From positions 1,613-65,612 of the forward strand of contig DBPV01000004.1 of NCBI GenBank assembly GCA_002304995.1: a stretch of DNA of 64,000 nt, read 5' to 3'. The notes beneath the pieces were generated by a model. That model was given only the letters and a program-made list of their open reading frames with translations. It was not told the DNA's origin and made no database searches. Made by a program: the position numbers and the translations under genes. Of the stretch, positions 33,000 to 44,097 are shown piece by piece; the stretch's first letter is position 1; every line of letters starts with the position of its first letter. Origin of the DNA: Syntrophaceae bacterium UBA1411 (GTDB lineage: Bacteria; Desulfobacterota; Syntrophia; Syntrophales; Smithellaceae).

Positions 33000-33186
33000 G
33001 GCAGCCGGCCGTCATCGGCTCCGGGCTCCGCTTTTTATTACATTGACAGAAGCGCATTATTTGCCTATAGTGACAATCAAAAGGTTTTCTCTGTGGGCCG
33101 CCCGTCATTGCGGTCCGTTCATTTTTTTTCACGTCCGTCGTCGGTAAACCCCTCTTCTTAAAAAGTCGAATGGAGGATTGATTATT

Positions 33187-33603
33187 ATGGCAGAACGTAC
33201 AATACACATCACAAAATTTGACATGGACCGCCTGCTGGAGCTCATCGACGGCCTGCGGGCCACACCCAAAGCCGTTAAAATAGACCTCGACCTTCTGGAA
33301 AAGGAGCTTTACCGCGCCACGCTGGTCGAGCCGCAGAATATACCGCGCGACGTCATCACGATGAACTCCAAAGTCAGCGTCACGGACATCGAATCCGGCG
33401 AAAAGACGACTTATACCCTTGTGTTTCCGTCCGCGGCCAACATCAGCGAAAACAAGCTGTCCATTCTGGCGCCCCTGGGTATGGCGCTTCTGGGATACCG
33501 CACGGACGACATCGTCGAATGGCGCATGCCGTCCGGCGTCCGCAAACTTCGGGTGGACGGCATCCTCTATCAGCCGGAAGCGGCCGGAGATTATCATTTA
33601 TGA
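33187..33603 (+). CDS. rnk: GreA/GreB-family regulator Rnk (nucleoside diphosphate kinase regulator-like)
   Basis: 138 aa from ATG 33187 (GGAGG lies 10 nt upstream). Short coiled-coil N-terminus plus a GreA/B C-terminal domain (..ISILAPLGMALLGYRTDDIVEW..). Confidence 0.75.
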   Translation: MAERTIHITKFDMDRLLELIDGLRATPKAVKIDLDLLEKELYRATLVEPQNIPRDVITMNSKVSVTDIESGEKTTYTLVFPSAANISENKLSILAPLGMALLGYRTDDIVEWRMPSGVRKLRVDGILYQPEAAGDYHL

Positions 33604-33654: not shown

Positions 33655-34707
33655 ATGATCGAGAGATTGAAGAACAAAGCCATCCGGAAAAAGGGCATCG
33701 GACCTTCCGAAGCGCTGGAGCTGTTCATCGAAGGAACCCATTCCCCTTACCGCGTCCTTGCCGCGGCCAGTGAAATCCGCGAACACTTCAAGGGCAAGGC
33801 CATCATACTCTGCGGCATCGCCAACGCCAAATCCGGCAAATGCTCCGAAGACTGCGCCTTTTGCGCCCAGTCGTCGCGCCACGCCGCAGAAGTTCCGATC
33901 TACCCGCTCAAAAGCGCCCGGGAAATCGTCGCCGCTGCGCTTTCGGCCCGCAGGGACGGAGCGGAATTTTTCAGCATCGTCACCAGCGGCAGACGCATCG
34001 CGTCACAGAAAGAGTGGAAGGAAATCTTCAAGGCCGTCGACGGCATGAACCGCATCGGCATCCGTCCCTGCGCATCGCTGGGGATGATCGACACGATTCG
34101 GGCCCGCGAACTCAAAAACGCGGGGCTTTTCCGCTATCACCACAATCTCGAAACGGCCCGTAGTTTTTTTAAAAACATCTGCACCACCCACGACTACGAA
34201 GAAAACCTCGCCACCGTCCGCGCCGCGAAGGAGGCGGGGCTTTCGGTCTGTTCCGGCGCGCTCTTCGGCATGGGCGAAGGGATCACGCACCGCATCGAGC
34301 TGGCCGCGACACTGGCCGGACTCGGCGTCGATTCCGTTCCGGTCAATCTGCTTCATCCGATCAAGGGAACGCCGCTTGCGCACATGCCGCTTCTGCCGCC
34401 TCTGGAAGTTCTCATGACGCTGGCCGTTTACCGTTTCATGCTGCCGGACAAGGACATCAAACTGTGCGGCGGAAAGGAAAAAACCCTGCGCCAGCTCCTG
34501 CCGCTGGGCATTATCGCGGGCGCCAATTCGCTGATGACGGGCAATTACCTGACCACCACCGGCCGCGACAGCCGGCTCGACCATGAGATGATCGCCGACT
34601 TGGGACTGATCCCCACCCGCGAGCTTGATATCTGCCGCTGCGGAAGAGAAGGAGAAAACGGCTGCCCCGCCGCCGCGGCCGCAAAAGGAAAAGCACCCCG
34701 GACGTAA
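33655..34707 (+). CDS. bioB: biotin synthase (radical SAM)
   Basis: 350 aa. CSEDCAFCAQS (CxxxCxxC) motif. The ..YHHNLET.. and ..GKE.. regions are typical of BioB. Confidence 0.88.
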   Translation: MIERLKNKAIRKKGIGPSEALELFIEGTHSPYRVLAAASEIREHFKGKAIILCGIANAKSGKCSEDCAFCAQSSRHAAEVPIYPLKSAREIVAAALSARRDGAEFFSIVTSGRRIASQKEWKEIFKAVDGMNRIGIRPCASLGMIDTIRARELKNAGLFRYHHNLETARSFFKNICTTHDYEENLATVRAAKEAGLSVCSGALFGMGEGITHRIELAATLAGLGVDSVPVNLLHPIKGTPLAHMPLLPPLEVLMTLAVYRFMLPDKDIKLCGGKEKTLRQLLPLGIIAGANSLMTGNYLTTTGRDSRLDHEMIADLGLIPTRELDICRCGREGENGCPAAAAAKGKAPRT

Positions 34708-34795
34708 ATGGTTTTGAGATCCGGGAACGTCCTGCCGGAAATCTGCGCCGGCGCCGCCCTGTATCGGAAGCAGTCGCCGCCGTCGACATTTTTCA

Positions 34796-34824
34796 TTGAC
34801 AGCTCCGGGGTTCTTTCTTATACC
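34796..34824 (+). promoter_or_regulatory. sigma-70-type promoter of the acyltransferase gene, sharing a core with the promoter at 36845
   Basis: TTGACA (34796-34801), 17 nt, TATACC (34819-34824). The 14-mer ATTGACAGCTCCGG (34795-34808) is identical to 36844-36857. Confidence 0.55.
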
Positions 34825-34859
34825 TCCCGGCGCAGGAAACAACGACAAGGAGAATTCCC

Positions 34860-35726
34860 ATGGGTTTTCGCGACCGCGCCGACGGCGTTCTGCTCACCAA
34901 AATATCCGGCTTCCGCAAAATGTGGCCCTACCTCATGCCCACCCGCGGAGAATCCACGCTCTATGCCACGCAGCGGATCCGGCTCGGCAACACGCTGGCC
35001 TGGCTGGAGCGGGCAAACGCCGGGCGGGAAGAAAAGCTGACCCTGTTTCACGTTATCCTGGCGGCCAGCGTCCGCCTGTTTGCGCTTCGTCCGGACCTGA
35101 ACCGCTTTGTCGCCGGCCGGCGCATTTATCAGCGGCGCGCCATCGACATCTCCTTTGTCGTCAAGCGGGAAAAATCGGAGCGGGGCTCGGAAACCACCCT
35201 CAAGCTCACGTTTGATCCGTTCTCCACGATTGAAACCGTCGCTCGGCAGGTGGCGGCCGCCGTTTCGTCCACCCGAGAGAGCAAATCATCCCACGATGAG
35301 AGCTTCTCCAATCTTCTGACGGTCATGCCGCGGTTTCTGATCCGGTCTCTGGTCCGCTTCGGACACATCCTCGACTATTTCGGGCTTCTGCCCGCCTCCT
35401 ACATCCGCGGCGACGCCATGTTTGCCAGCGGCTTTTTATCCCATCTGGCCAGCATCAACCTGGATGCGGTCTACCATCCTCTGTTTGAATGGGGAAACGT
35501 TTCATTTTTTCTGGTGATCGGCAAAAAGAAAAAGGAGCCGGCGGTGAGCGAAGAGGGCAACCTCCGGATCGAAGAGGTCATGGACCTCGCTTTCAGCCTC
35601 GATCACCGGGTGACAACCGGAGTGCATTTTTTCAAAGGCATTGCGCTGTATGTCGATCTCCTGGAAAATCCCGCTCCCCTGATGGAGAGACCGCAAAATC
35701 TTCCCGATCCGCTGGCACAGGCCTGA
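34860..35726 (+). CDS. stand-alone 2-oxoacid-dehydrogenase E2-type (CAT-fold) acyltransferase catalytic-domain protein
   Basis: 288 aa. The C-terminal SLDHRVTTGVHFFKGIALYVDLLENP aligns with the E2 catalytic motif DHRxxDG....F......LE.P. No lipoyl or subunit-binding domains. Confidence 0.7.
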   Translation: MGFRDRADGVLLTKISGFRKMWPYLMPTRGESTLYATQRIRLGNTLAWLERANAGREEKLTLFHVILAASVRLFALRPDLNRFVAGRRIYQRRAIDISFVVKREKSERGSETTLKLTFDPFSTIETVARQVAAAVSSTRESKSSHDESFSNLLTVMPRFLIRSLVRFGHILDYFGLLPASYIRGDAMFASGFLSHLASINLDAVYHPLFEWGNVSFFLVIGKKKKEPAVSEEGNLRIEEVMDLAFSLDHRVTTGVHFFKGIALYVDLLENPAPLMERPQNLPDPLAQA

Positions 35727-35789
35727 CCGGGTACGCCGTTTCGTCCGACCCTTTTTTTCGGGCCGGCGCCGGGATGAGGCCGGGCCGTT

Positions 35790-36779
35790 TTACCGAAGCC
35801 ACTTTTCCTTGCGGTACCAGTCGATCGTTTCTTCCATCCCGCGGGCCAGATCGTATTCGGAGCGGAAATTCAGCTCCGCGCGGAGCGGCTCGACATCGCA
35901 GTTCCAGTTGCCGGCTACCAGTTCATTGACCTTTTCCCGGTTCAAAACGGGAGGCTTTTGCAAAATCCGGCAGGCCGGTTCCGCAGCGGCGGCGATGATC
36001 CGGACCAGCCACACGGGCAGGGCCACATGCGCTGCTTTCCCGCCCAGACACCCGGCGACAATTCGCCCCAGATCGCGGCTGCCGTACAGGTGGCCGTCGG
36101 CGGCGAAATAGGCCCGATTGACGTGCGGCGACTCCAGCGCGGCGAAAACCAGGCGGACCAGGTCTTTGACGTACATAAACGTGAGGCGCTGATTTTTTCT
36201 TCCCGCCTGCAGGGCCACGCCGCGGCGGATCAGTTTGATCGCTTCGAAGATGTCCCTTTCACCGGGCCCGTAAACCGCGGTGGGACGGATGATCACATAC
36301 GGCAGGCCTTTTTCCGCGAGAATTTTTTCGGCGGCCAGCTTGCTTTTCCCGTAAGCCGTCACGGGCCCGGGCGTTGTCGTGCGCAAAACGGGGCCGCCGG
36401 ACGGATCGCCGGGACCGAACGCGGCCAGGCTGCTCATCAGCAGAAACTTCTCCGGTATCCGGCCGGTTTGCAGCAGGGCCTCCGCGAGCCGGCGCGTATT
36501 TTCGGCGTTGACTTCAAAATATTCTTCGGGAGAAAGCGATTTCGTCAGGCCCGCATTGTGAATGACGTAATCGCAGCGGGGCAGAAAACACAGTTGATCG
36601 CGCAGGCGGGACGCCGATGAAAAGTCGCAGGTCACGACGGGAATGTTCCGGGCGTCCAGATAGCCGGTTTGGCTGGTTTGCCGGACGGCGGCCACCAGGT
36701 CGTAGCCGCGCCGCAGGGCTTCCTCCACGAGAAAACGGCCGATAAAACCGGTCGCGCCGGTAAGCAGAATTCTTTTCAT
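35790..36779 (-). CDS. NAD(P)-dependent epimerase/dehydratase-family reductase (extended SDR)
   Basis: Start moved to ATG 36779 (MKRILLTGATGFIGRFL...). GxxGxxG motif, and a YGKSK (YxxxK) catalytic dyad preceded by MSS. Confidence 0.85.
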   Translation of the reverse strand: MKRILLTGATGFIGRFLVEEALRRGYDLVAAVRQTSQTGYLDARNIPVVTCDFSSASRLRDQLCFLPRCDYVIHNAGLTKSLSPEEYFEVNAENTRRLAEALLQTGRIPEKFLLMSSLAAFGPGDPSGGPVLRTTTPGPVTAYGKSKLAAEKILAEKGLPYVIIRPTAVYGPGERDIFEAIKLIRRGVALQAGRKNQRLTFMYVKDLVRLVFAALESPHVNRAYFAADGHLYGSRDLGRIVAGCLGGKAAHVALPVWLVRIIAAAAEPACRILQKPPVLNREKVNELVAGNWNCDVEPLRAELNFRSEYDLARGMEETIDWYRKEKWLR

Positions 36780-36844
36780 ACGCAAGAACGCCGTCCTTTT
36801 GGCCATCGGTATAAAAAGCGCCGGCAAGCCTGTCAAGAAGATAA

Positions 36845-36873
36845 TTGACAGCTCCGGCCAACTCTTCTATATT
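36845..36873 (+). promoter_or_regulatory. sigma-70-type promoter of the LolA-like/barrel/oxoamine-synthase operon
   Basis: TTGACA (36845-36850), 17 nt, TATATT (36868-36873). It shares the identical 14-mer ATTGACAGCTCCGG with 34795-34808. Confidence 0.55.
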
Positions 36874-37108
36874 TCCCGGGCAAAACGAGAACGCTCAACC
36901 ATCCGGCCGGGGAACCGAACGTAAACCCTGCGTTCTGACCACGCCGGATTATCATGACAAAAGACGAAAAAGGCTGGACAAGATGTTTTTAATCCACTAC
37001 ACGCAAAACAACATACCGTCGGGCCTTTTTGGCCGGGCTTGCCGCCCCGGCCGGAATTCCTCCCGCGGGAAAAGCCGTAAAAAATTCATCCCGGAGGGGT
37101 TCTGCCCG

Positions 37109-37885
37109 ATGACCGACAAACGGATTCTCCTTTTACTGCTTGCGGCGTTTCTGCTCGTTCCGGCCTTGGCCGACGCCATGAGCGGGCGAGAAATCTTCGA
37201 AAAAATGCACGAGGTGCGCCTGCGCATGCTCAACCAGAAAACGGAAGCCACGATGGTGCTTTACGACCGGGGCGGCGGCAAACGCATCCGCACGCTCACG
37301 CAGTACAGCAAAAACGCGGCTCCCGAAGCCTACAAGGTTCTTTTGATCTTCAACTCGCCCGCGGATTTGAAAAACGTCGGCTTTCTGGCGCATGCCCGCA
37401 CGTTTTCCGACCGAAGCCTCTGGGCGTATTTTCCCGAATTCAAGCGGATCCGGCGCATTCCCACATCCGCCCAGGACGATTCCTTCTTCGGCTCCGACTT
37501 TTCCTACGACGACTTCAGCGGGCCGCCGAATCTCGACGACTATGCCTTCAAGGTGCTTCGGGAGGAAACCGTCGACGACAGGCCCTGCTACGTGGTGGAA
37601 GTTTCGCCGAAGATTCCCCGTAAATATTCAAAATACATCACCTGGGTGGTCAAAAACCTCTGGATAACCGCCAAAGTCGAGTTTTACCGGGAAAAGGAAT
37701 TGTACCGTCTGGGGGCTTTCCGCGACATTCGCCTGGTGGACGGACTTCCGACGCCCTTTACGCTGGAGATGCAAAACGTCAAATCCGGACATCGGACGGT
37801 GGTGACCGTCAACAAAGTCAGCTACCGAACCAGTTTCCCCGATGAGCTTTTCACCCAGCGGGCGCTGGAGCGGGGGGGCAGATAG
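37109..37885 (+). CDS. LolA-like outer-membrane lipoprotein-sorting family protein (periplasmic)
   Basis: This is the real part of track ORF 36845..37885, from ATG 37109 (GGAGGGG upstream). Signal peptide ..VPALADA. The motif ..RIPTSAQDDSFFGSDFSYDDF.. is typical of the LolA_like family. Confidence 0.7.
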   Translation: MTDKRILLLLLAAFLLVPALADAMSGREIFEKMHEVRLRMLNQKTEATMVLYDRGGGKRIRTLTQYSKNAAPEAYKVLLIFNSPADLKNVGFLAHARTFSDRSLWAYFPEFKRIRRIPTSAQDDSFFGSDFSYDDFSGPPNLDDYAFKVLREETVDDRPCYVVEVSPKIPRKYSKYITWVVKNLWITAKVEFYREKELYRLGAFRDIRLVDGLPTPFTLEMQNVKSGHRTVVTVNKVSYRTSFPDELFTQRALERGGR

Positions 37886-37931
37886 CCGCGGCTGCCTGCG
37901 ATCGCCACAACAGTTTTAAGGAGAGACAAAC

Positions 37932-39293
37932 ATGAAAAAACTATGGTTGGCCGCCGTTGTGCTGTTTTGCTGGGCTTCCGGAAGTTACGCGGAAGACTTT
38001 CTGAACGTTTCGGGGAAACTTCATTTGCGGGGCGTCGTTCCGCTGCACAGTGAAAGCGTGATGGAATACCCGAGCCTCCTGGGGCAGCTCAAGGTCGACA
38101 CCAAACCGTCTCCCCTGCGTTTCCACATGTGGCTCGAAGGCGGTTGGGACGGAAGCGTCACTCTGCCGGTGGAAGACCATTCCACCCTCAAGTTCGGCGA
38201 TCGGGTCTATCAGAGCACCACGCCGTTTCTGGAATTCAAGGAACTCTACGGCTCTTACTCCACCGACTGGCTGGAAGTCCGCGCGGGCATCCAGCGCTTC
38301 GCCTGGGGCAGGCTTGACGAGTATCCCGTCAACGATCTGCTCAACCCCTGGGACTATTCCCAGTTTTTGAGGAAGCCGCTGGAAGACCGCAAGATCGGCG
38401 TTCCGTCGCTTTCGACACGCCTCAGCCATGACACCTGGAGCCTCGACGCGGTCTGGGTTCCCGTCTTCATCCCGTATCGCCTGCCGCTTTCCACCGAACG
38501 CTGGTCGCCCCTCAATCAGATGGTCAGCCGGTTCAACAACCTGCCGGTCAATTTTCTCACCAGCGACGCCGACATTCCGTCGCGCAATCTGGCTTCGGGC
38601 GCAGGCGGCCTGCGTCTTTCGAAAACAGGCGTTGTCGACTGGAGCGTCAACCTGTTTCACGGCTACGATCCGCGGCCGGTGCTGAAGGCCACCCGGCTCA
38701 TTATCGCGCCGGTGGCCGGCCAGGTCGCCGTCGAGCCGGGCGCGGTGGCCGATTTCCACAAAATGTCGTCCTTCGGTCTCGATGCGGCGTTCGTCAAAGG
38801 CCCCTGGAGCCTGCGCGCCGAAGCGGCTTACGCGGTCGGACGCTACTTCAACACCAATCTCGAGCGCTGGGGCTATCCGGCCGTTCCCGCGTTCGGCGTT
38901 TATCCGCTCGCCCCCAACGAGCATAAGAGCGATTCACTGGACTACGGCATCGGCGCCGATTACCGCGTCTTCGAGGACTGTCTGCTCACCATGCAGGCCC
39001 AGCAAACCGTGATCCTGGACCGGCCCGATTCGCTCTACCAGCAGAAGTTTGAAACGATCTTCTGGGCCAACCTGAGAAACGGTTTTCTCAATCAGCGGAT
39101 CATCACCAATCTCAACGCCGCCTACAATCCCGAGCACGGCGGCGTCATGGCCCGGGGCAACGTCTCGTACGTGCTTTCCGACTACTGGAAGGTCGGCGTG
39201 ACGGCCGTCGGTTTCTGGGGACCCGAGCAGTCCCTGTTCGGCAGATACAAAACCAATGATCAGGTAGAGGTGGATCTCGTTTTTTCATGGTAA
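37932..39293 (+). CDS. outer-membrane beta-barrel protein (DUF1302-like)
   Basis: 453 aa. Signal peptide ..SGSYA. Alternating beta-strand pattern and C-terminal aromatic residue (..LVFSW). The ..GIQRFAWGRLDEYPVNDLLNPWDY.. block resembles the DUF1302 signature (recollection). Confidence 0.6.
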   Translation: MKKLWLAAVVLFCWASGSYAEDFLNVSGKLHLRGVVPLHSESVMEYPSLLGQLKVDTKPSPLRFHMWLEGGWDGSVTLPVEDHSTLKFGDRVYQSTTPFLEFKELYGSYSTDWLEVRAGIQRFAWGRLDEYPVNDLLNPWDYSQFLRKPLEDRKIGVPSLSTRLSHDTWSLDAVWVPVFIPYRLPLSTERWSPLNQMVSRFNNLPVNFLTSDADIPSRNLASGAGGLRLSKTGVVDWSVNLFHGYDPRPVLKATRLIIAPVAGQVAVEPGAVADFHKMSSFGLDAAFVKGPWSLRAEAAYAVGRYFNTNLERWGYPAVPAFGVYPLAPNEHKSDSLDYGIGADYRVFEDCLLTMQAQQTVILDRPDSLYQQKFETIFWANLRNGFLNQRIITNLNAAYNPEHGGVMARGNVSYVLSDYWKVGVTAVGFWGPEQSLFGRYKTNDQVEVDLVFSW

Positions 39294-39315
39294 GAGAAAA
39301 CGAAATAAAAGACGC

Positions 39316-40584
39316 ATGGAAACTCAAAAAAACACGGACGAAAAAGCGAAACAGCGTATTCACCAGGAAATCATCGAATTTCAGGGCGACGACCTCTTTG
39401 ACGTAAAAAACTACTTCTGGGAATTTTTCCAGGACGGCATCCGGCAGAAGCACTACATTTATCTCAATCCGCTGGCCACCGCGCCCACTGCCCAGGTGCA
39501 GGCCTACGACCGCTACACGAAAAGCGTCCGGCCGTATCTTAATTTTTCATCCTACAATTATCTGGGATATTCCGTTTATCCCGAGGTGATCCGCGAAGTT
39601 CAGGACACGCTGGCCAAATACGGAACGGGCGCCGCGTCCGCGCCGCTTTTCAGCGGCTACTACGACGTCACCGAAAGGCTGGAGAAAAAAATCGCGGCTT
39701 TTAAAAACAAGGAAGCCGCGCTGGTATTTCCCACCGGCTACAGCGCCAACGTGGGCGTCCTGTCCGGTCTGCTCAAGCCGGGCGACGTCGCGGTTCTGGA
39801 CATCCTGGCCCACGCCTCCATTTACGACGGAGCGAAGCTGGCCGGCGCGGAGATCAAAGTCTTCAGCCACAACAGTCCGCGCCATCTGGAGCGGGTCCTC
39901 AAAAGCCTGAACACCCGGCGGGCCATCGTCTGCGTGGAGGGCGTCTACAGCATGGACGGCGACCTGGCCAGACTGCCCGAGATCGTCGCGCTCTGCCGGA
40001 AATACGGGGTTAAAATTCTGATCGACGAGGCGCACGCGACACTGATTTTCGGCGAACACGGCCGCGGTGTGGCCGAGCATTTCGGCGTGGAAGACGCCAT
40101 GGACATCAGCATCGGCACCTTCAGCAAGTCCTTCGGCGCCATCGGCGGTTTTGCCGCGGGCGACGAAAAGCTGATCAATTATCTGCGTTTTTCCGCCCGT
40201 TCGTATATTTTCTCCTGCGCGATGGCGCCGCACACGGCGGCGGGCATCCTCAAAATCCTGGAGATTTACGACCGCGACAAAAGCCAGCGGGAAAAACTCT
40301 GGGACAATGTCCGCTACATGCATAAAGCGCTTACAGACGCCGGCCTCGATATCGGAGACACGCAATCCCAGGTGGTGCCTGTTTTTGTCGGAGAGGAACT
40401 GCGCCTGCGGGAAGTCGGCCGGCGGATTTATGAAAAAGGGTTGTACACCGGCATCGTGACGTACCCGGCCGTATCCAGCAAACGCACGCGCCTGAGGCTT
40501 TCCGTATCGTCCTATCACACGCAGGAACAGATGGACACCTGTTCGGCCATCCTGAAGTCGGCCTTTGACGAGGTTCCTGAGTAA
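39316..40584 (+). CDS. PLP-dependent alpha-oxoamine synthase (serine palmitoyltransferase/BioF/KBL family)
   Basis: 422 aa. YLNFSSYNYLGY, HASIYDG, VEGVYSMDGD, DEAH and the PLP-lysine motif GTFSKSFG. About 75 aa precede the NFSSYNYLG block, as in bacterial SPT and longer than in E. coli BioF. Confidence 0.85.
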   Translation: METQKNTDEKAKQRIHQEIIEFQGDDLFDVKNYFWEFFQDGIRQKHYIYLNPLATAPTAQVQAYDRYTKSVRPYLNFSSYNYLGYSVYPEVIREVQDTLAKYGTGAASAPLFSGYYDVTERLEKKIAAFKNKEAALVFPTGYSANVGVLSGLLKPGDVAVLDILAHASIYDGAKLAGAEIKVFSHNSPRHLERVLKSLNTRRAIVCVEGVYSMDGDLARLPEIVALCRKYGVKILIDEAHATLIFGEHGRGVAEHFGVEDAMDISIGTFSKSFGAIGGFAAGDEKLINYLRFSARSYIFSCAMAPHTAAGILKILEIYDRDKSQREKLWDNVRYMHKALTDAGLDIGDTQSQVVPVFVGEELRLREVGRRIYEKGLYTGIVTYPAVSSKRTRLRLSVSSYHTQEQMDTCSAILKSAFDEVPE

Positions 40585-40608
40585 AGCGGCCCTGCGGCGG
40601 GCGTGGAT

Positions 40609-42225
40609 TTATTGCGGCAGCGTAAAGTAAAAGGCGGCGCCTTTTGCCGGCTGGCCCTCCGCCCAGACCCGGCCGCCGTGCAGGGCGACAATCCGGCGGA
40701 CCGTGGCCAGACCGATTCCCGTGCCGGGAAAATCTTCCGGGCTGTGCAGACGCTGAAAGGCGCCGAAAAGTTTCCCGACCTGGGCCATGTCAAAGCCTAC
40801 GCCATTGTCCCGGACGCAGTAGACGGGCTCGCCGTCCCGGAAGGTCATGCCAAATTCAATCCGGGGGCAATCGCTCCGGCCGGTAAACTTCCAGGCGTTT
40901 TCCAGCAGATTGGTCAGTGCAATCCGCAGCAGATTGGCGTCTCCCCACGCCGTCACACCGTCCTGAATCCGAAGCGCGATTTCCGGGCGGGGACGGTTCT
41001 GCCGGCACAGATCGGCCGCCGCACGAACCAGGGCGCTGAGATCGATTTTTTCGCGCTTGAATTCCAGCCGCGTCACCCGCGACAGTTTCAGCAGATCCTC
41101 GATCAACTGCCCCATCCGCTGAGCGGCGCGGCGCACCCGGTTGAGGTAGTCCTTCGCCTGATCATCCAGCTTGTCTGTATAATCTTCCAGCAGCGTTTCG
41201 CTGAAGCCGTCGATGATCCGGAGCGGCGCCCGCAGGTCGTGGGAAACCGAATAGCTGAAAGTCTTCAGCTCTTCATTGGACGCCTCGAGCTGCATGGTGC
41301 GCTCCCGGACCCGCCGTTCGAGCTCTTCGTTGAGACGGCGGATTTCATCCTCCGCCTTCTTGCGTTCGGTGATGTCGCGTGCGATGGAAATCATGCCGAT
41401 GATCGCCTCGTCCCGCCGGACGGGGGAACAGCTGACTTCGCCGTAGCGGATGCTTCCGTCGTTGGCGATAAACGTATAAACCGTCATGGGAACGGACCGG
41501 CCCGCGAGGACGGAAGAAATGTCGGCCGCCGCGCGTTCGAACGATTCCTGCGCCATGATCCGCCTGAGGTCGCCAACCGGACGGCGCAGAAAAGCCTCCG
41601 GCGTGTGGCCCAGGATTTTCGCGATGCTGGGAGACATGCTGGCGATGGTGAGATTCGCGTCGACAATGAAAACGACATCCGTGATGTTTTCAAAGCTCAG
41701 GCGATACTTTTCCTCCAGCGCCCGCAGATCCCGGTTGGCCGCTTCCAGATCCGCCATCTTCTTTTCCAGCTTGCCGAAAAGAATTTCATTGTACCGGCGG
41801 AAGAATTCCATTTCTTCGCCCAGCGGGCGTTCGGCCCCGCCGCGGACCTTTTTGTTTTGCGCGAGCAGTTGCGCCAGGATGCTCCCCAGCGCCTCCGGTT
41901 CCTGCGGCTTGACGAGAAACAGGTCCGCTCCCAGATCCAGCGCAAAGCGTTCATCTTTTTGCTGGGTGTAGGTGGCCGTGTAAAAAACGAAAGGAATGTC
42001 TTTAAGGCGCTCGTCGGCTTTGATTTCGCGGCACAGTGTGTAGCCGTCCATGACCGGCATCAGAATGTCCGTGACAATCAGATCGGGATTTTCCGCGCGC
42101 GCCTTCTCGAGCGCGATTTTGCCGTTTTCCGCCTCAAGCGCCTCCCAGCCCTGCCCCTCCACCAGGCTTTTGAGCAACCACAAATTGGCGCTGTCGTCGT
42201 CAACGATCAAAACCTTTGCTTTCAT
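40609..42225 (-). CDS. hybrid REC-PAS-histidine kinase
   Basis: 538 aa. N-terminal receiver (VDDD...DILMPVMDG), coiled coil, PAS domain, H-box (SVSHDLRAPL) and an HATPase domain with N/G boxes (LLENAWKF, DNGVGF, GTGIGLA). Confidence 0.88.
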   Translation of the reverse strand: MKAKVLIVDDDSANLWLLKSLVEGQGWEALEAENGKIALEKARAENPDLIVTDILMPVMDGYTLCREIKADERLKDIPFVFYTATYTQQKDERFALDLGADLFLVKPQEPEALGSILAQLLAQNKKVRGGAERPLGEEMEFFRRYNEILFGKLEKKMADLEAANRDLRALEEKYRLSFENITDVVFIVDANLTIASMSPSIAKILGHTPEAFLRRPVGDLRRIMAQESFERAAADISSVLAGRSVPMTVYTFIANDGSIRYGEVSCSPVRRDEAIIGMISIARDITERKKAEDEIRRLNEELERRVRERTMQLEASNEELKTFSYSVSHDLRAPLRIIDGFSETLLEDYTDKLDDQAKDYLNRVRRAAQRMGQLIEDLLKLSRVTRLEFKREKIDLSALVRAAADLCRQNRPRPEIALRIQDGVTAWGDANLLRIALTNLLENAWKFTGRSDCPRIEFGMTFRDGEPVYCVRDNGVGFDMAQVGKLFGAFQRLHSPEDFPGTGIGLATVRRIVALHGGRVWAEGQPAKGAAFYFTLPQ

Positions 42226-42300
42226 TCTTTTCTCCCGTTTTTCCGCCCGCGCAAAGCGCCGAGACCAAACGCGCGGCAGGCCATTGAAAAAAAACCGCGC

Positions 42301-42729
42301 TTACGTCGGCCGGCTTGGATCGCCGGGGCGGGACAAACCAAACCGGACGGCAATGTCCTCGCACATTTGCCGGTAAAAGGTTTTCACATCGATGCGTTTT
42401 TCAAAAAAAGCGCACCGCTTGCCAAGCTCGCCGGTGAGGTTTTCCTCCAAATTGTATCCGCTGATGAGGATGCAGGGAACGTTTTTCAAATCGGGATGTT
42501 CTTCATCGATGCGTTTGATCAGCTCGACGCCGGTCATGGCCGGCATCGCGTAATCCAGAACCATCAGATCCGGTTTCAGACCCCCTGCGATGAGCTCCAG
42601 AGCTTCCTGCGGCCGACGCGCCTCGACAAATTCGAGTTCGGCGTCCCTGAGCAGCCGCCGGATATGGAGAATGGACAGGACGCGGAAGTCATCTTCATCA
42701 TCGACAAAAAGAACGACGATTTTATCCAT
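42301..42729 (-). CDS. single-domain response regulator
   Basis: Start moved to ATG 42729 (MDKIVVLFVDDEDD...), preceded by AGGAG. The receiver-domain pattern has its phospho-acceptor Asp in MVLDYAMP. Confidence 0.8.
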   Translation of the reverse strand: MDKIVVLFVDDEDDFRVLSILHIRRLLRDAELEFVEARRPQEALELIAGGLKPDLMVLDYAMPAMTGVELIKRIDEEHPDLKNVPCILISGYNLEENLTGELGKRCAFFEKRIDVKTFYRQMCEDIAVRFGLSRPGDPSRPT

Positions 42730-42780
42730 GCCTCTCTCCTGTGGAACAGCCGCCAAAGCGGAAACCGGCCGGCCGTCTTT

Positions 42781-44097
42781 CTATGGTGTTTCCGTCTCCG
42801 GAGCGGAAATCGCCGCGCCGGCTTCGGGGAGCGCTTCCACCGACCGCAATTTACCGGCCAGCGTCCGCGTCTTTTTCTGGGCATCATCGACGGAGCTCGC
42901 GGCCGCATCCAGTTTCTTGCGCACCGAATCGAGCGTATCGCCGAAGCGGCTGAACGCCGTCTTCACCTCGCCTAAAACCTTCCAGACTTCGCCGGAGCGC
43001 TTCTGGATGGCCAGCGCGCGGAAGCCCATTTGCAGACTGTTGAGAAAGGCGGCAAACGTCGAGGGGCCGGAGACGACGATGCGGAAATCGCGCTGCAGGG
43101 CCGACACCAGCGCAAAACGGCGGATCACTTCGGCGTAAAGGCCTTCCGACGGCAGAAACATGATGCCGAAATCGGTGGTTTTCGGCGGCGCCAGATATTT
43201 CTGCGCAATGTCTTTCGCGGCCTTTTTGATGCTTGCGTCGAGCTGTCGCGCCGCGTCTTCCGCGGCCGGAGCGTCGCCGCGGTCCTGCGCTTCCGTGAGC
43301 CGGACGTAGTCCTCCACCGGAAATTTCGCGTCCACCGGAATCAGCACGGCATCGGAGGGACAATCGCCCTGGCCGGGCAGACGAATGGCAAACTCGACGA
43401 AATCGCCGCCCTCCTCCCGGATCCGGACGTTTTTCAAGTATTGATCGGGTGAAAGGATCTCCTCGAGCAGCGCGCCCAGCTGCACTTCGCCCCACGTGCC
43501 GCGGGATTTGACGTTGGTCAGCACCTTTTTCAAATCGCCCACGCCGGCGGCCAGCGATCGCATATCGCCCAGCCCCCGGTGAACCTGCTCGAGTCTTTCG
43601 GAAACCTGCCGGAAAGATTCTCCCAGGCGCGCCTCGAGCGTCCCCTGAAGCTTTTCATCGACGGTCTGCCGCATGCGGTCGAGCTGGCGGGCGTTGTCTT
43701 CCTGAATCTGTTTGAGTTTTTCGTCAATGATGCCGCGGATGTCTTCCAGCTTCTTTTCATTGGCCGCCGTCAGGAGCCCCAGCTGCCGGGAAAAGCTTTC
43801 CAGCTGATCGTTTTGGATTTTGGCGCTGTCGGCCAGGCGCGCCTGGACGGAATCACTGAAAGAGGCGAGCGTGCGCGCCAGTTCGGTTCTTTCCTCCTGG
43901 GACGACGCCCGCGCTTCCGAGCGCGCGCGGCCCATCTCATCGCGCAGAGAGCGGTCGGTCCTCTCCTGAGCGTCCAGAAGCGCCTCCAGCTTTGCAGCCA
44001 GCGGCGACCAATCGACCGGCCGCCGCCTCAGCTGCACCAATTGCAGCAAGACCACAATCAGCAGCAAGACAGCCAAAATGTAGAAAAGAATTTCCAT
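42781..44097 (-). CDS. rmuC: DNA recombination protein RmuC
   Basis: 438 aa. N-terminal TM helix, long coiled coil, and a C-terminal RmuC nuclease-like domain (..GTWGEVQL...VDAKFP...FGIMFLPSEGLY..). Confidence 0.88.
   Translation of the reverse strand: MEILFYILAVLLLIVVLLQLVQLRRRPVDWSPLAAKLEALLDAQERTDRSLRDEMGRARSEARASSQEERTELARTLASFSDSVQARLADSAKIQNDQLESFSRQLGLLTAANEKKLEDIRGIIDEKLKQIQEDNARQLDRMRQTVDEKLQGTLEARLGESFRQVSERLEQVHRGLGDMRSLAAGVGDLKKVLTNVKSRGTWGEVQLGALLEEILSPDQYLKNVRIREEGGDFVEFAIRLPGQGDCPSDAVLIPVDAKFPVEDYVRLTEAQDRGDAPAAEDAARQLDASIKKAAKDIAQKYLAPPKTTDFGIMFLPSEGLYAEVIRRFALVSALQRDFRIVVSGPSTFAAFLNSLQMGFRALAIQKRSGEVWKVLGEVKTAFSRFGDTLDSVRKKLDAAASSVDDAQKKTRTLAGKLRSVEALPEAGAAISAPETETP

Follow-up and report, generated by a model that had tools for sequence, protein, structure and literature searches.

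The gene at positions 39316-40584 of the window, by which we mean the whole stretch of 64,000 nucleotides from the assembly of Syntrophaceae bacterium UBA1411 (Smithellaceae), lies directly behind genes for a LolA-like periplasmic protein and for a candidate outer-membrane beta-barrel protein on the same strand, and is followed by a convergent histidine kinase gene. It is a real, intact gene for an alpha-oxoamine synthase (AOS). Sequence comparison places the encoded protein in a distinct, unnamed subfamily within a superclade related to serine palmitoyltransferase (SPT). We are highly confident that the enzyme is not BioF and, a little less firmly, consider that it is neither a canonical SPT nor a KBL. 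As the gene stands behind lipid-export genes, the enzyme probably supplies an unusual lipid of the cell envelope with its backbone.

The protein matches the Pfam family Aminotran_1_2 (PF00155) with 178.6 bits (E = 2.7e-52). Its best matches among the NCBIfam models are all AOS families, and high scores are found there only. The blocks H-A-S, D-E-A-H, F-S-K and R-L-R align with those of the reference proteins, and the catalytic His, Asp and Lys as well as the C-terminal Arg are intact. None of the curated NCBIfam cut-offs is reached. The best match, to the BioF/Kbl-related model TIGR01825, gives 344.9 bits against a cut-off of 535.4, followed by bioF (TIGR00858; 342 bits, cut-off 426.45), the SPT models of the Bacteroidota type (NF047600; 337.1 bits, cut-off 640) and of the beta type (NF047599; 325.7 bits, cut-off 500), KBL (NF005394; 321.6 bits, cut-off 460), alpha-type SPT (NF047603; 270.9 bits, cut-off 670), a second KBL model (TIGR01822; 266.1 bits, cut-off 493), ALAS (259.1 bits, cut-off 338.55) and the CqsA type of CqsA/LqsA autoinducer synthases (NF005526; 222.8 bits, cut-off 428). 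In a search against solved structures, the SPT of S. multivorum (3A2B/8GUH) was the best match with 269.8 bits, ahead of a cysteate fatty acyltransferase (CFAT; PDB 28eh, 205.7 bits) and E. coli BioF (181 bits); the CqsA structures were the weakest of the AOS matches (129 bits).

For the phylogeny, reference proteins were labelled via the curated cut-offs, and E. coli BioF (b0776) and Kbl were included. To these were added 48 of the 150 best representatives of an all-against-library search, picked by rank and length; fusion proteins entered with their AOS domain alone, and CFAT and CqsA references were absent from the rows. Two trees, one built quickly from 104 rows and one built with more care under LG+G4 from 66 (38 of the 104 dropped; bootstrap not fully settled), give the same picture, and in each of them the window's protein and its orthologs, hereafter the family, lie outside the BioF, KBL and Kbl-related clades. 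In the LG+G4 tree the family is monophyletic on a long stem (support 100/100). Its sisters (100/99) are unlabelled AOSs together with P0123, a fusion of an acyl carrier protein (ACP) and an AOS that is 48% identical to the window's protein, and P0128, in which a fatty acyl-AMP ligase (FAAL) is joined as well (FAAL-ACP-AOS). Family and sisters belong to a superclade (99/98) that also takes in both canonical SPT types, SPT-like proteins below the cut-offs, PilZ-AOS-GNAT fusions and a paralog linked to a polyketide synthase (PKS). Excluded from it are KBL (a clade of its own, 100/100), the Kbl-related proteins, ALAS and 11 of the 12 BioF rows, the twelfth of which, P0191, branches immediately outside. 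The canonical SPT clade (96/96) leaves the family out. Approximately unbiased (AU) tests rejected trees in which the family was held with BioF (delta-lnL 129.9, p = 0.0006) or with the canonical SPT clade (delta-lnL 101.7, p = 6e-5), the latter group having been named after the tree had been seen. An earlier reading of the DNA letters, which we call the first-pass annotation, had proposed a maximum-likelihood tree as a check on its view that the gene stands closer to SPT than to BioF; the family does not cluster with BioF orthologs, and both the superclade and the structure scores bear that view out.

The motifs were compared in an alignment of 10 family, 24 BioF, 4 SPT, 5 KBL, 7 Kbl-related and 3 ALAS rows. 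SSYNYLG occupies residues 78-84 of the window's protein, with 75 residues in front of NFSSYNYLG, as the first-pass annotation had counted; HASIYDG lies at 166-172, GTFSKSFG at 267-274 and IVTYPAVS at 380-387. That annotation had taken HASIYDG, R.YIFS and REKLW, together with GTFSKS, for signs of SPT. All of them are present, but the first three do not separate SPT from BioF: HASIIDG and ARSFIFS are found in BioFs above the cut-off, BioF P0225 has HASIYDG itself, and E. coli BioF is, by this alignment, an atypical sequence. The PLP-binding (pyridoxal phosphate) motif GTFSKS, termed characteristic of SPT in part of the structural literature (PMC10196870), separates better, the exact hexapeptide being found in 4/4 SPT, 7/10 family (the window's protein included) and 0/24 BioF rows; its value as a marker is reduced by GTFSKA, which is seen in BioF and in three family rows. 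A Y-N-Y motif is common to the family, alpha-type SPT, the ACP-fusion sisters and the PKS-linked paralog, and occurs in none of the 24 BioF, 5 KBL, 7 Kbl-related and 3 ALAS rows. As the first-pass annotation had also noticed, the carboxylate-binding Arg of SPT is replaced: where BioF reads R-P-P-T-V, all ten family rows read V-T-[YF]-P, with Thr at the position of the Arg. The Arg is present in 24/24 BioF rows and in both alphaproteobacterial (alpha-type) SPTs, and is missing from Bacteroidota-type SPT (0/2), KBL (0/5) and ALAS (0/3).

A second loop concerns the amino acid itself. In the SPT of S. multivorum, as part of the structural paper describes (PMC10196870), the Ala79-Asn85 loop lines the amino-acid side chain from the partner subunit. 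SPT reads A-G-S-R-F-L-N here, whereas the family reads A-[AV]-S-A-P-L-[FL]-S in 10/10 rows. The Arg of this loop is kept in 22 of the 24 BioF rows and in all KBL (5/5), Kbl-related (7/7), ALAS (3/3) and SPT (4/4) rows; every family row has Pro in its place. With S-A-P for G-S-R, serine use is not to be assumed for the family, and since the pocket is altered, the amino-acid substrate cannot be read off by homology, so that the caution of the first-pass annotation on this point stands.

A word-indexed search scored 8,000 candidates, of which 4,822 reached E <= 1e-30; its best 120 rows are all homologs of 64-100% identity. Of the loci found in species-representative genomes, 10 out of 38 encode proteins 62-94% identical to the window's, the next one standing at 40%; on metagenome contigs the figures are 5 out of 41 loci at 67-94% and 41% for the next. 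Orthologs occur in Smithellaceae, Aminicenantes, Bacteroidales (Massilibacteroides, Microbacter), Brevinematales and one bin labelled Clostridiales. A sample of 151 genomes of the window's order yielded an ortholog in 3, each of them from the window's genus, in which two further genomes are without it; the next-best match in this sample is 40% identical. In the tree the Smithellaceae sequences nest (100/100) inside those of Aminicenantes, Bacteroidales and Brevinematales. This nesting, whose rooting hinges on the sister group, and the patchy spread fit a horizontal acquisition of the gene by the window's genus. Massilibacteroides vaginae (G001) and a Bacteroidetes metagenome-assembled genome (MAG; G004) have three AOS genes each, namely a canonical SPT (692 and 694 bits, respectively; cut-off 640), a canonical KBL (about 699 bits in both; cut-off 493) and the ortholog, while an Aminicenantes MAG (G003) has two KBLs and the ortholog, and a Brevinematales MAG (G005) the ortholog alone. 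Taken over all carriers, the family is found together with each of BioF, KBL and SPT, which implies a fourth, unassigned activity.

Some orthologs have neighbours or partners of their own. One of them, P0086 (711 aa), was called as a fusion with an AraC-type regulator (DUF6597 + HTH_18), and in a Bacteroidales MAG an AraC-type regulator gene (L012:6820-7677) lies immediately 5' of the ortholog; fusion and adjacency hint at ligand-responsive regulation. In another case, from an Aminicenantes MAG, the gene ahead of the ortholog (L016:4805-7912) encodes a 1,035-aa protein in which an APH-type kinase, an M23 peptidase domain and a class-III aminotransferase are fused. Genes for an Ala-racemase-GNAT fusion, methyltransferases and a classical short-chain dehydrogenase/reductase (SDR) lie nearby, and the set may modify an amino alcohol or amino lipid.

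The features around the AOS gene are collected in Table 1, together with the biotin genes of G140 (= G002), another genome of the same genus.

Table 1 Features of the window around the AOS gene, and the biotin gene cluster of genome G140.
Feature	Position	Strand	Remarks
Rnk/GreA-like	33178-33603	+	
bioB	33655-34707	+	TIGR00433, 365.8 bits (cut-off 225)
Stand-alone CAT/E2-like acyltransferase	34860-35726	+	288 aa; C-terminal match to PF00198, E = 1.6e-12
Extended SDR (NAD-dependent epimerase/dehydratase family)	35790-36779	-	PF01370, E = 3.8e-36
Sigma-70-like promoter match	36845-36873	+	TTGACA-17-TATATT (11/12); between SDR and LolA-like genes
LolA-like periplasmic protein	37109-37885	+	PF17131 (LolA_like), E = 1.4e-51; signal peptide
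Outer-membrane beta-barrel candidate	37932-39293	+	453 aa; weak DUF1302 match (PF06980), 25.1 bits (cut-off 23.2)
AOS	39316-40584	+	ATG start, open frame, 422 aa
Hybrid histidine kinase	40609-42225	-	convergent, 3' of AOS
Response regulator	42301-42756	-	
RmuC	42781-44097	-	
bioA of G140	C2:486031-487323		570.6 bits
bioF of G140	C2:487398-488483		463 bits
bioD of G140	C2:488729-489244		150.1 bits
bioB of G140	C2:489652-490563		382 bits

The open reading frame (ORF) of the LolA-like gene extends mechanically from 36845, and its likely start is the Met given in the table, from which the signal peptide follows; this start was chosen from the sequence and from a 258-aa ortholog in locus L018. The barrel candidate begins with an N-terminal signal-like sequence. 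Gaps of 46 nt between the LolA-like and barrel genes and of 22 nt between the barrel and AOS genes contain no terminator-like site, in a scan of the region that was no richer in such sites than shuffled sequence (12 sites versus a mean of 9.3). The sigma-70-like match is the sole one in 34600-40800; shuffled sequences contain 1.3 such sites on average, so that it counts only as a hint from position. Contigs from four metatranscriptome libraries of four studies (sludge, digester, sediment) contain this stretch at >= 99% identity. The junction between the barrel and AOS genes is bridged by contigs in three of the four runs (X1, X3 and X12), with none across it in X8 among those listed, and the junction between the LolA-like and barrel genes in one run (X1).

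On the other side of the promoter match, the SDR gene is transcribed divergently; its mechanical ORF reaches to 36836, and the protein has no signal peptide. Its best NCBIfam match is HpnA (85 bits, far under the cut-off), and its best match among solved structures, with 58 bits, is to sugar epimerases. The CAT-like acyltransferase keeps the catalytic His in a D-H-R motif and finds the catalytic domains of E2 proteins as its best solved structures (E = 0.07). In G140, too, the acyltransferase gene (61% identity) stands beside the SDR gene, and the SDR gene (60% identity) beside the cluster. A 790-aa ORF downstream of the AOS gene (40603-42975, + strand) was considered as an AOS partner and rejected as an antisense shadow of the hybrid histidine kinase and response regulator genes; it is rich in Arg, Gln and Ala, has no family match and is not a gene.

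The order of LolA-like, barrel and AOS genes is kept in loci L017, L018, L060 and L064, of which L017 and L060 are nearly identical to one another. In L018 and L064, genes for an ABC ATPase and an 865-aa MacB/FtsX permease stand ahead of the LolA-like gene. The window's genome has a MacB-type permease (76% identity) and an ABC ATPase on a separate contig of 10.7 kb (C104:4143-7411), so that the transport module is split in this assembly. The G140 ortholog (81-82% identity; C2:934108-935334) likewise lies behind LolA-like and barrel genes. Orthologs of the barrel (52-94% identity) follow LolA-like genes in G150, G140, G027, G037 and G149, and the four-gene module of an ABC ATPase, a MacB-type permease with duplicated FtsX, a LolA-like protein and a DUF1302-like barrel occurs in three other Syntrophales families. 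In G149 (L123, C98) it lies 5.4 kb from a different, SPT-like AOS gene, with genes for an SDR, DegV/FakB, FakA and PlsY between them. In G027 (L124, C6) it is followed by genes for a UbiA prenyltransferase, GT2 glycosyltransferases, an ArnT-like enzyme and a homolog of the CAT-like acyltransferase, with no AOS gene, and in G037 (L125, C6) no lipid genes are nearby. Judged by its genes and their surroundings, the module looks like a general exporter of envelope lipids. The chief hint against a chance link between AOS and module comes from a second Syntrophales family, in which an unrelated SPT-like gene stands 5.4 kb from the module. Taken together, the gene orders are suggestive of a transport link that is specific to the genus, with one independent echo in G149, and not general.

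From the relatives of the enzyme and the order of the genes we propose, with the balance about even, that the AOS makes a long-chain amino-ketone lipid base, which in this genus would be modified by SDR and acyltransferase before the Lol/MacB-like module exports it. As in the related enzymes, PLP would form an external aldimine with a small amino acid, most likely Ser, Ala or Gly, and decarboxylative condensation with a presumably long-chain acyl thioester, probably an acyl-ACP, would give a long-chain alpha-amino ketone of the 3-ketosphinganine type. The next steps, in this genus, would be reduction of the ketone by the neighbouring SDR and acylation of the product by the CAT-like acyltransferase, whereupon the LolA-like protein, the barrel and the MacB-type ABC pair would carry the lipid to the outer membrane. 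The common superclade with both SPT types and the ACP or FAAL-ACP domains of the sisters point to a long-chain acyl donor. These fusions are functionally comparable to the trio of SPT, dedicated ACP and acyl-CoA synthetase that part of the work on Rhodobacteria describes (PMC9386255). They have the Y-N-Y motif and the Pro-containing loop in common with the window's protein, which, unlike them, has no fused carrier or ligase, nor is one encoded nearby. The extended SDR of the window also differs in type from the ketosphinganine reductase of the BT_0972 type, which is a classical SDR of about 31 kDa according to an excerpt of its description (PMC9278070). A bolder version is tentative and on balance doubtful. 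In it, the product would be an undescribed sphingolipid-like lipid of the outer membrane, with the ABC pair, the LolA-like protein and the barrel devoted to carrying it there from the inner membrane. For comparison, a 2024 paper on Caulobacter states, in an excerpt, that no such flippase or transporter for a bacterial sphingolipid had been identified (PMC11087976).

Several observations speak against this proposal. Transport genes accompany the ortholog in only 4 of its 15 loci, all Smithellaceae-like, and the orthologs of Bacteroidales, Aminicenantes and Brevinematales stand among unrelated genes (ribosomal protein S1 and an esterase in Massilibacteroides, the AraC-type regulator in L012), with no ACP, ligase or lipid gene nearby. 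A homolog of the acyltransferase is absent from G001, G003 and G004 and, across these other phyla, was found in Brevinematales only (38%); homologs of the SDR are 43-46% identical in two Bacteroidota genomes and 33% in Aminicenantes, and none was found in the Brevinematales genome G005. Conversely, the module is without a nearby AOS in G027 and G037, and no AOS lies in the roughly 20 kb around any of five distant barrel homologs (28-35% identity) from a 401-genome sample of the phylum. The nearest fusion relatives are only 41-48% identical, and the exchange of G-S-R for S-A-P falls in the very loop of the side-chain pocket. Finally, the contigs from RNA libraries give neither strand nor level, leave room for carry-over of DNA and are no proof of a single transcript.

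We consider it unlikely that the protein is instead an ordinary SPT isozyme, joining L-Ser to a C16-type acyl thioester and feeding conventional ceramide synthesis. It resembles the SPT of S. multivorum in fold family, in the catalytic His, Asp and Lys, in GTFSKS, in being a soluble stand-alone protein and in size, and the best solved-structure matches, 3a2b and 8guh at about 270 bits, are this enzyme; the family shares the superclade of both SPT types and the Y-N-Y motif of alphaproteobacterial SPT, and Ding et al. 2024 took a wide 'Spt-like' clade as potential SPTs, as far as the excerpt of that paper goes (PMC11334938). However, with 271-337 bits against SPT cut-offs of 500-670 the protein reaches about half of what the curated models ask, it is longer at the N-terminus by about 20 residues, with 6 residues inserted ahead of the N-terminal motif, and it belongs to a separate clade whose union with the canonical SPTs was rejected (AU p = 6e-5, for a group named once the tree had been seen). 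Its side-chain loop has S-A-P and not G-S-R, and a canonical SPT gene exists beside the ortholog in both G001 and G004. A check for a CerR ortholog showed that the best matches of the SDR in two Sphingomonadaceae genomes are only 28-31% identical and do not lie beside spt; bCerS and CerR were not sought as such. The suggestion of the first-pass annotation that the protein is akin to the SPT of Sphingomonas therefore does not extend to a Sphingomonas-type or any other canonical SPT, in view of the missed cut-offs, the coexistence in two Bacteroidota genomes and the AU test.

Quite improbable, in our view, is an enzyme that joins glycine or another amino acid to an acyl-CoA of short or medium length and makes a small amino ketone, either in KBL-like catabolism or as a diffusible signal or secondary metabolite. 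Such a role would agree with the best NCBIfam match, the BioF/Kbl-related TIGR01825 (344.9 bits), with a Y-P loop like that of KBL, with the solitary position of the gene in most phyla, as might be expected of a housekeeping or accessory enzyme, and with the hybrid histidine kinase and response regulator genes convergently downstream in the window's genome. The family lies, however, outside the KBL and Kbl-related clades in both trees, and one or two true KBLs accompany it in G001, G003 and G004. The CqsA-type model is missed by a wide distance (222.8 versus 428 bits) and the CqsA structures match worst of all AOSs (129 bits), the kinase neighbour is not kept in L018, and the nearest sisters bear ACP or FAAL-ACP domains.

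The biotin genes bear on the remaining reading. The first-pass annotation had pointed to bioB 4.6 kb upstream and argued against a bioB-linked bioF; 4,609 nt separate the bioB stop from the AOS start. Two AOS genes are present in the window's genome (3.42 Mb, 95.8% complete), both of them below the bioF cut-off. The absence of bioA and bioD, which had been noted for the window, extends to the whole genome, where bioD has no match and the best match for bioA (240.8 bits) stays below its cut-off of 405; bioC and bioH were not searched. A 94%-identical relative from a complete (100%) genome, G150, gives the same result, with no bioD and no bioA above the cut-off. The bioB gene is thus apparently an orphan in both genomes, which have no bioF above the cut-off either, and the organism may scavenge dethiobiotin from its surroundings, or its pathway may be incomplete. 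In G140, a complete bioA-bioF-bioD/bioB cluster lies about 445 kb from the ortholog, so that the adjacency to bioB in the window is a local rearrangement and not a conserved link. The separate bioF beside bioA and bioD that the first-pass annotation had suggested looking for was not found in the window's genome, where bioD has no match, and is present in a relative from the same genus. Among the other ortholog-bearing genomes, whose completeness was not reported, bioD was not found in G001, G003, G004 and G005, nor bioB in G001, G003 and G004. That the gene encodes a functional BioF, acting on a pimeloyl thioester and L-Ala in an organism that has bioB but no canonical bioF, is highly improbable: bioB lies upstream on the same strand, the bioF-model score (342 bits) is comparable to those of the other AOS models, and several orthologs are labelled '8-amino-7-oxononanoate synthase' by JGI, but the product would have nowhere to go in the window's genome and G150, the loop Arg of 24/24 BioF rows is missing, and the AU test places the family outside BioF (p = 0.0006).

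Other AOS branches offer points of comparison with the proposed lipid-forming enzyme. SgaB, described in part of a report on Pseudomonas fluorescens MYb115 (PMC12134224), is the AOS of the PKS-dependent sphingolipid cluster SgaAB and has SPT activity outside canonical SPT, so that SPT-like chemistry, on this partial account, occurs in non-canonical AOS branches. Its arrangement, a type I PKS followed directly by an AOS, matches the other AOS gene of the window's genome and not the one in the window. This second AOS (448 aa, 33% identical to the window's; contig C23, L008:947-11960) directly follows a 2,583-aa type I PKS (KS-AT-DH-MT-ER-KR-ACP) and has a KS-containing AOS fusion as its sister in the tree (100/99); a second CAT/E2-like acyltransferase gene, 29% identical to that of the window, lies upstream in divergent orientation. 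CFATs (CapB/SulA), a branch related to SPT, work on a different amino acid and have Ala at the equivalent of SPT Ser81, as excerpted from PMC13692747. An Ala at this position is also found in the window's family, but the match of the window's protein to the CFAT structure is weaker than that to SPT. The representative library further contains PilZ-AOS-GNAT and PilZ-AOS-FemAB-like fusions of about 920-930 aa (P0125, P0133, P0157 and P0162) and a response-regulator-AOS fusion (P0136). Their domains suggest AOS/N-acyltransferase enzymes under c-di-GMP or phosphorelay control, possibly analogues of a fused Spt and ceramide synthase.

A literature search not designed to be exhaustive found no paper on the subfamily, and the names given to it in the protein atlas are those of a generic AOS. 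The labels from automatic pipelines conflict (bioF, glycine C-acetyltransferase, generic class I/II aminotransferase), so that homology-based surveys of the biotin pathway or of sphingolipid potential will miscount the family. It is a sharply defined AOS subfamily that is spread between phyla of anaerobic-digester and sediment bacteria, and since at least two carriers, Massilibacteroides vaginae and Microbacter margulisiae, are in culture, its activity is directly testable. The operon link to the Lol/MacB-like module makes the latter a candidate for moving sphingolipid-type lipids to the outer membrane and, if true, the first candidate route by which a bacterial lipid of this type would be transported.

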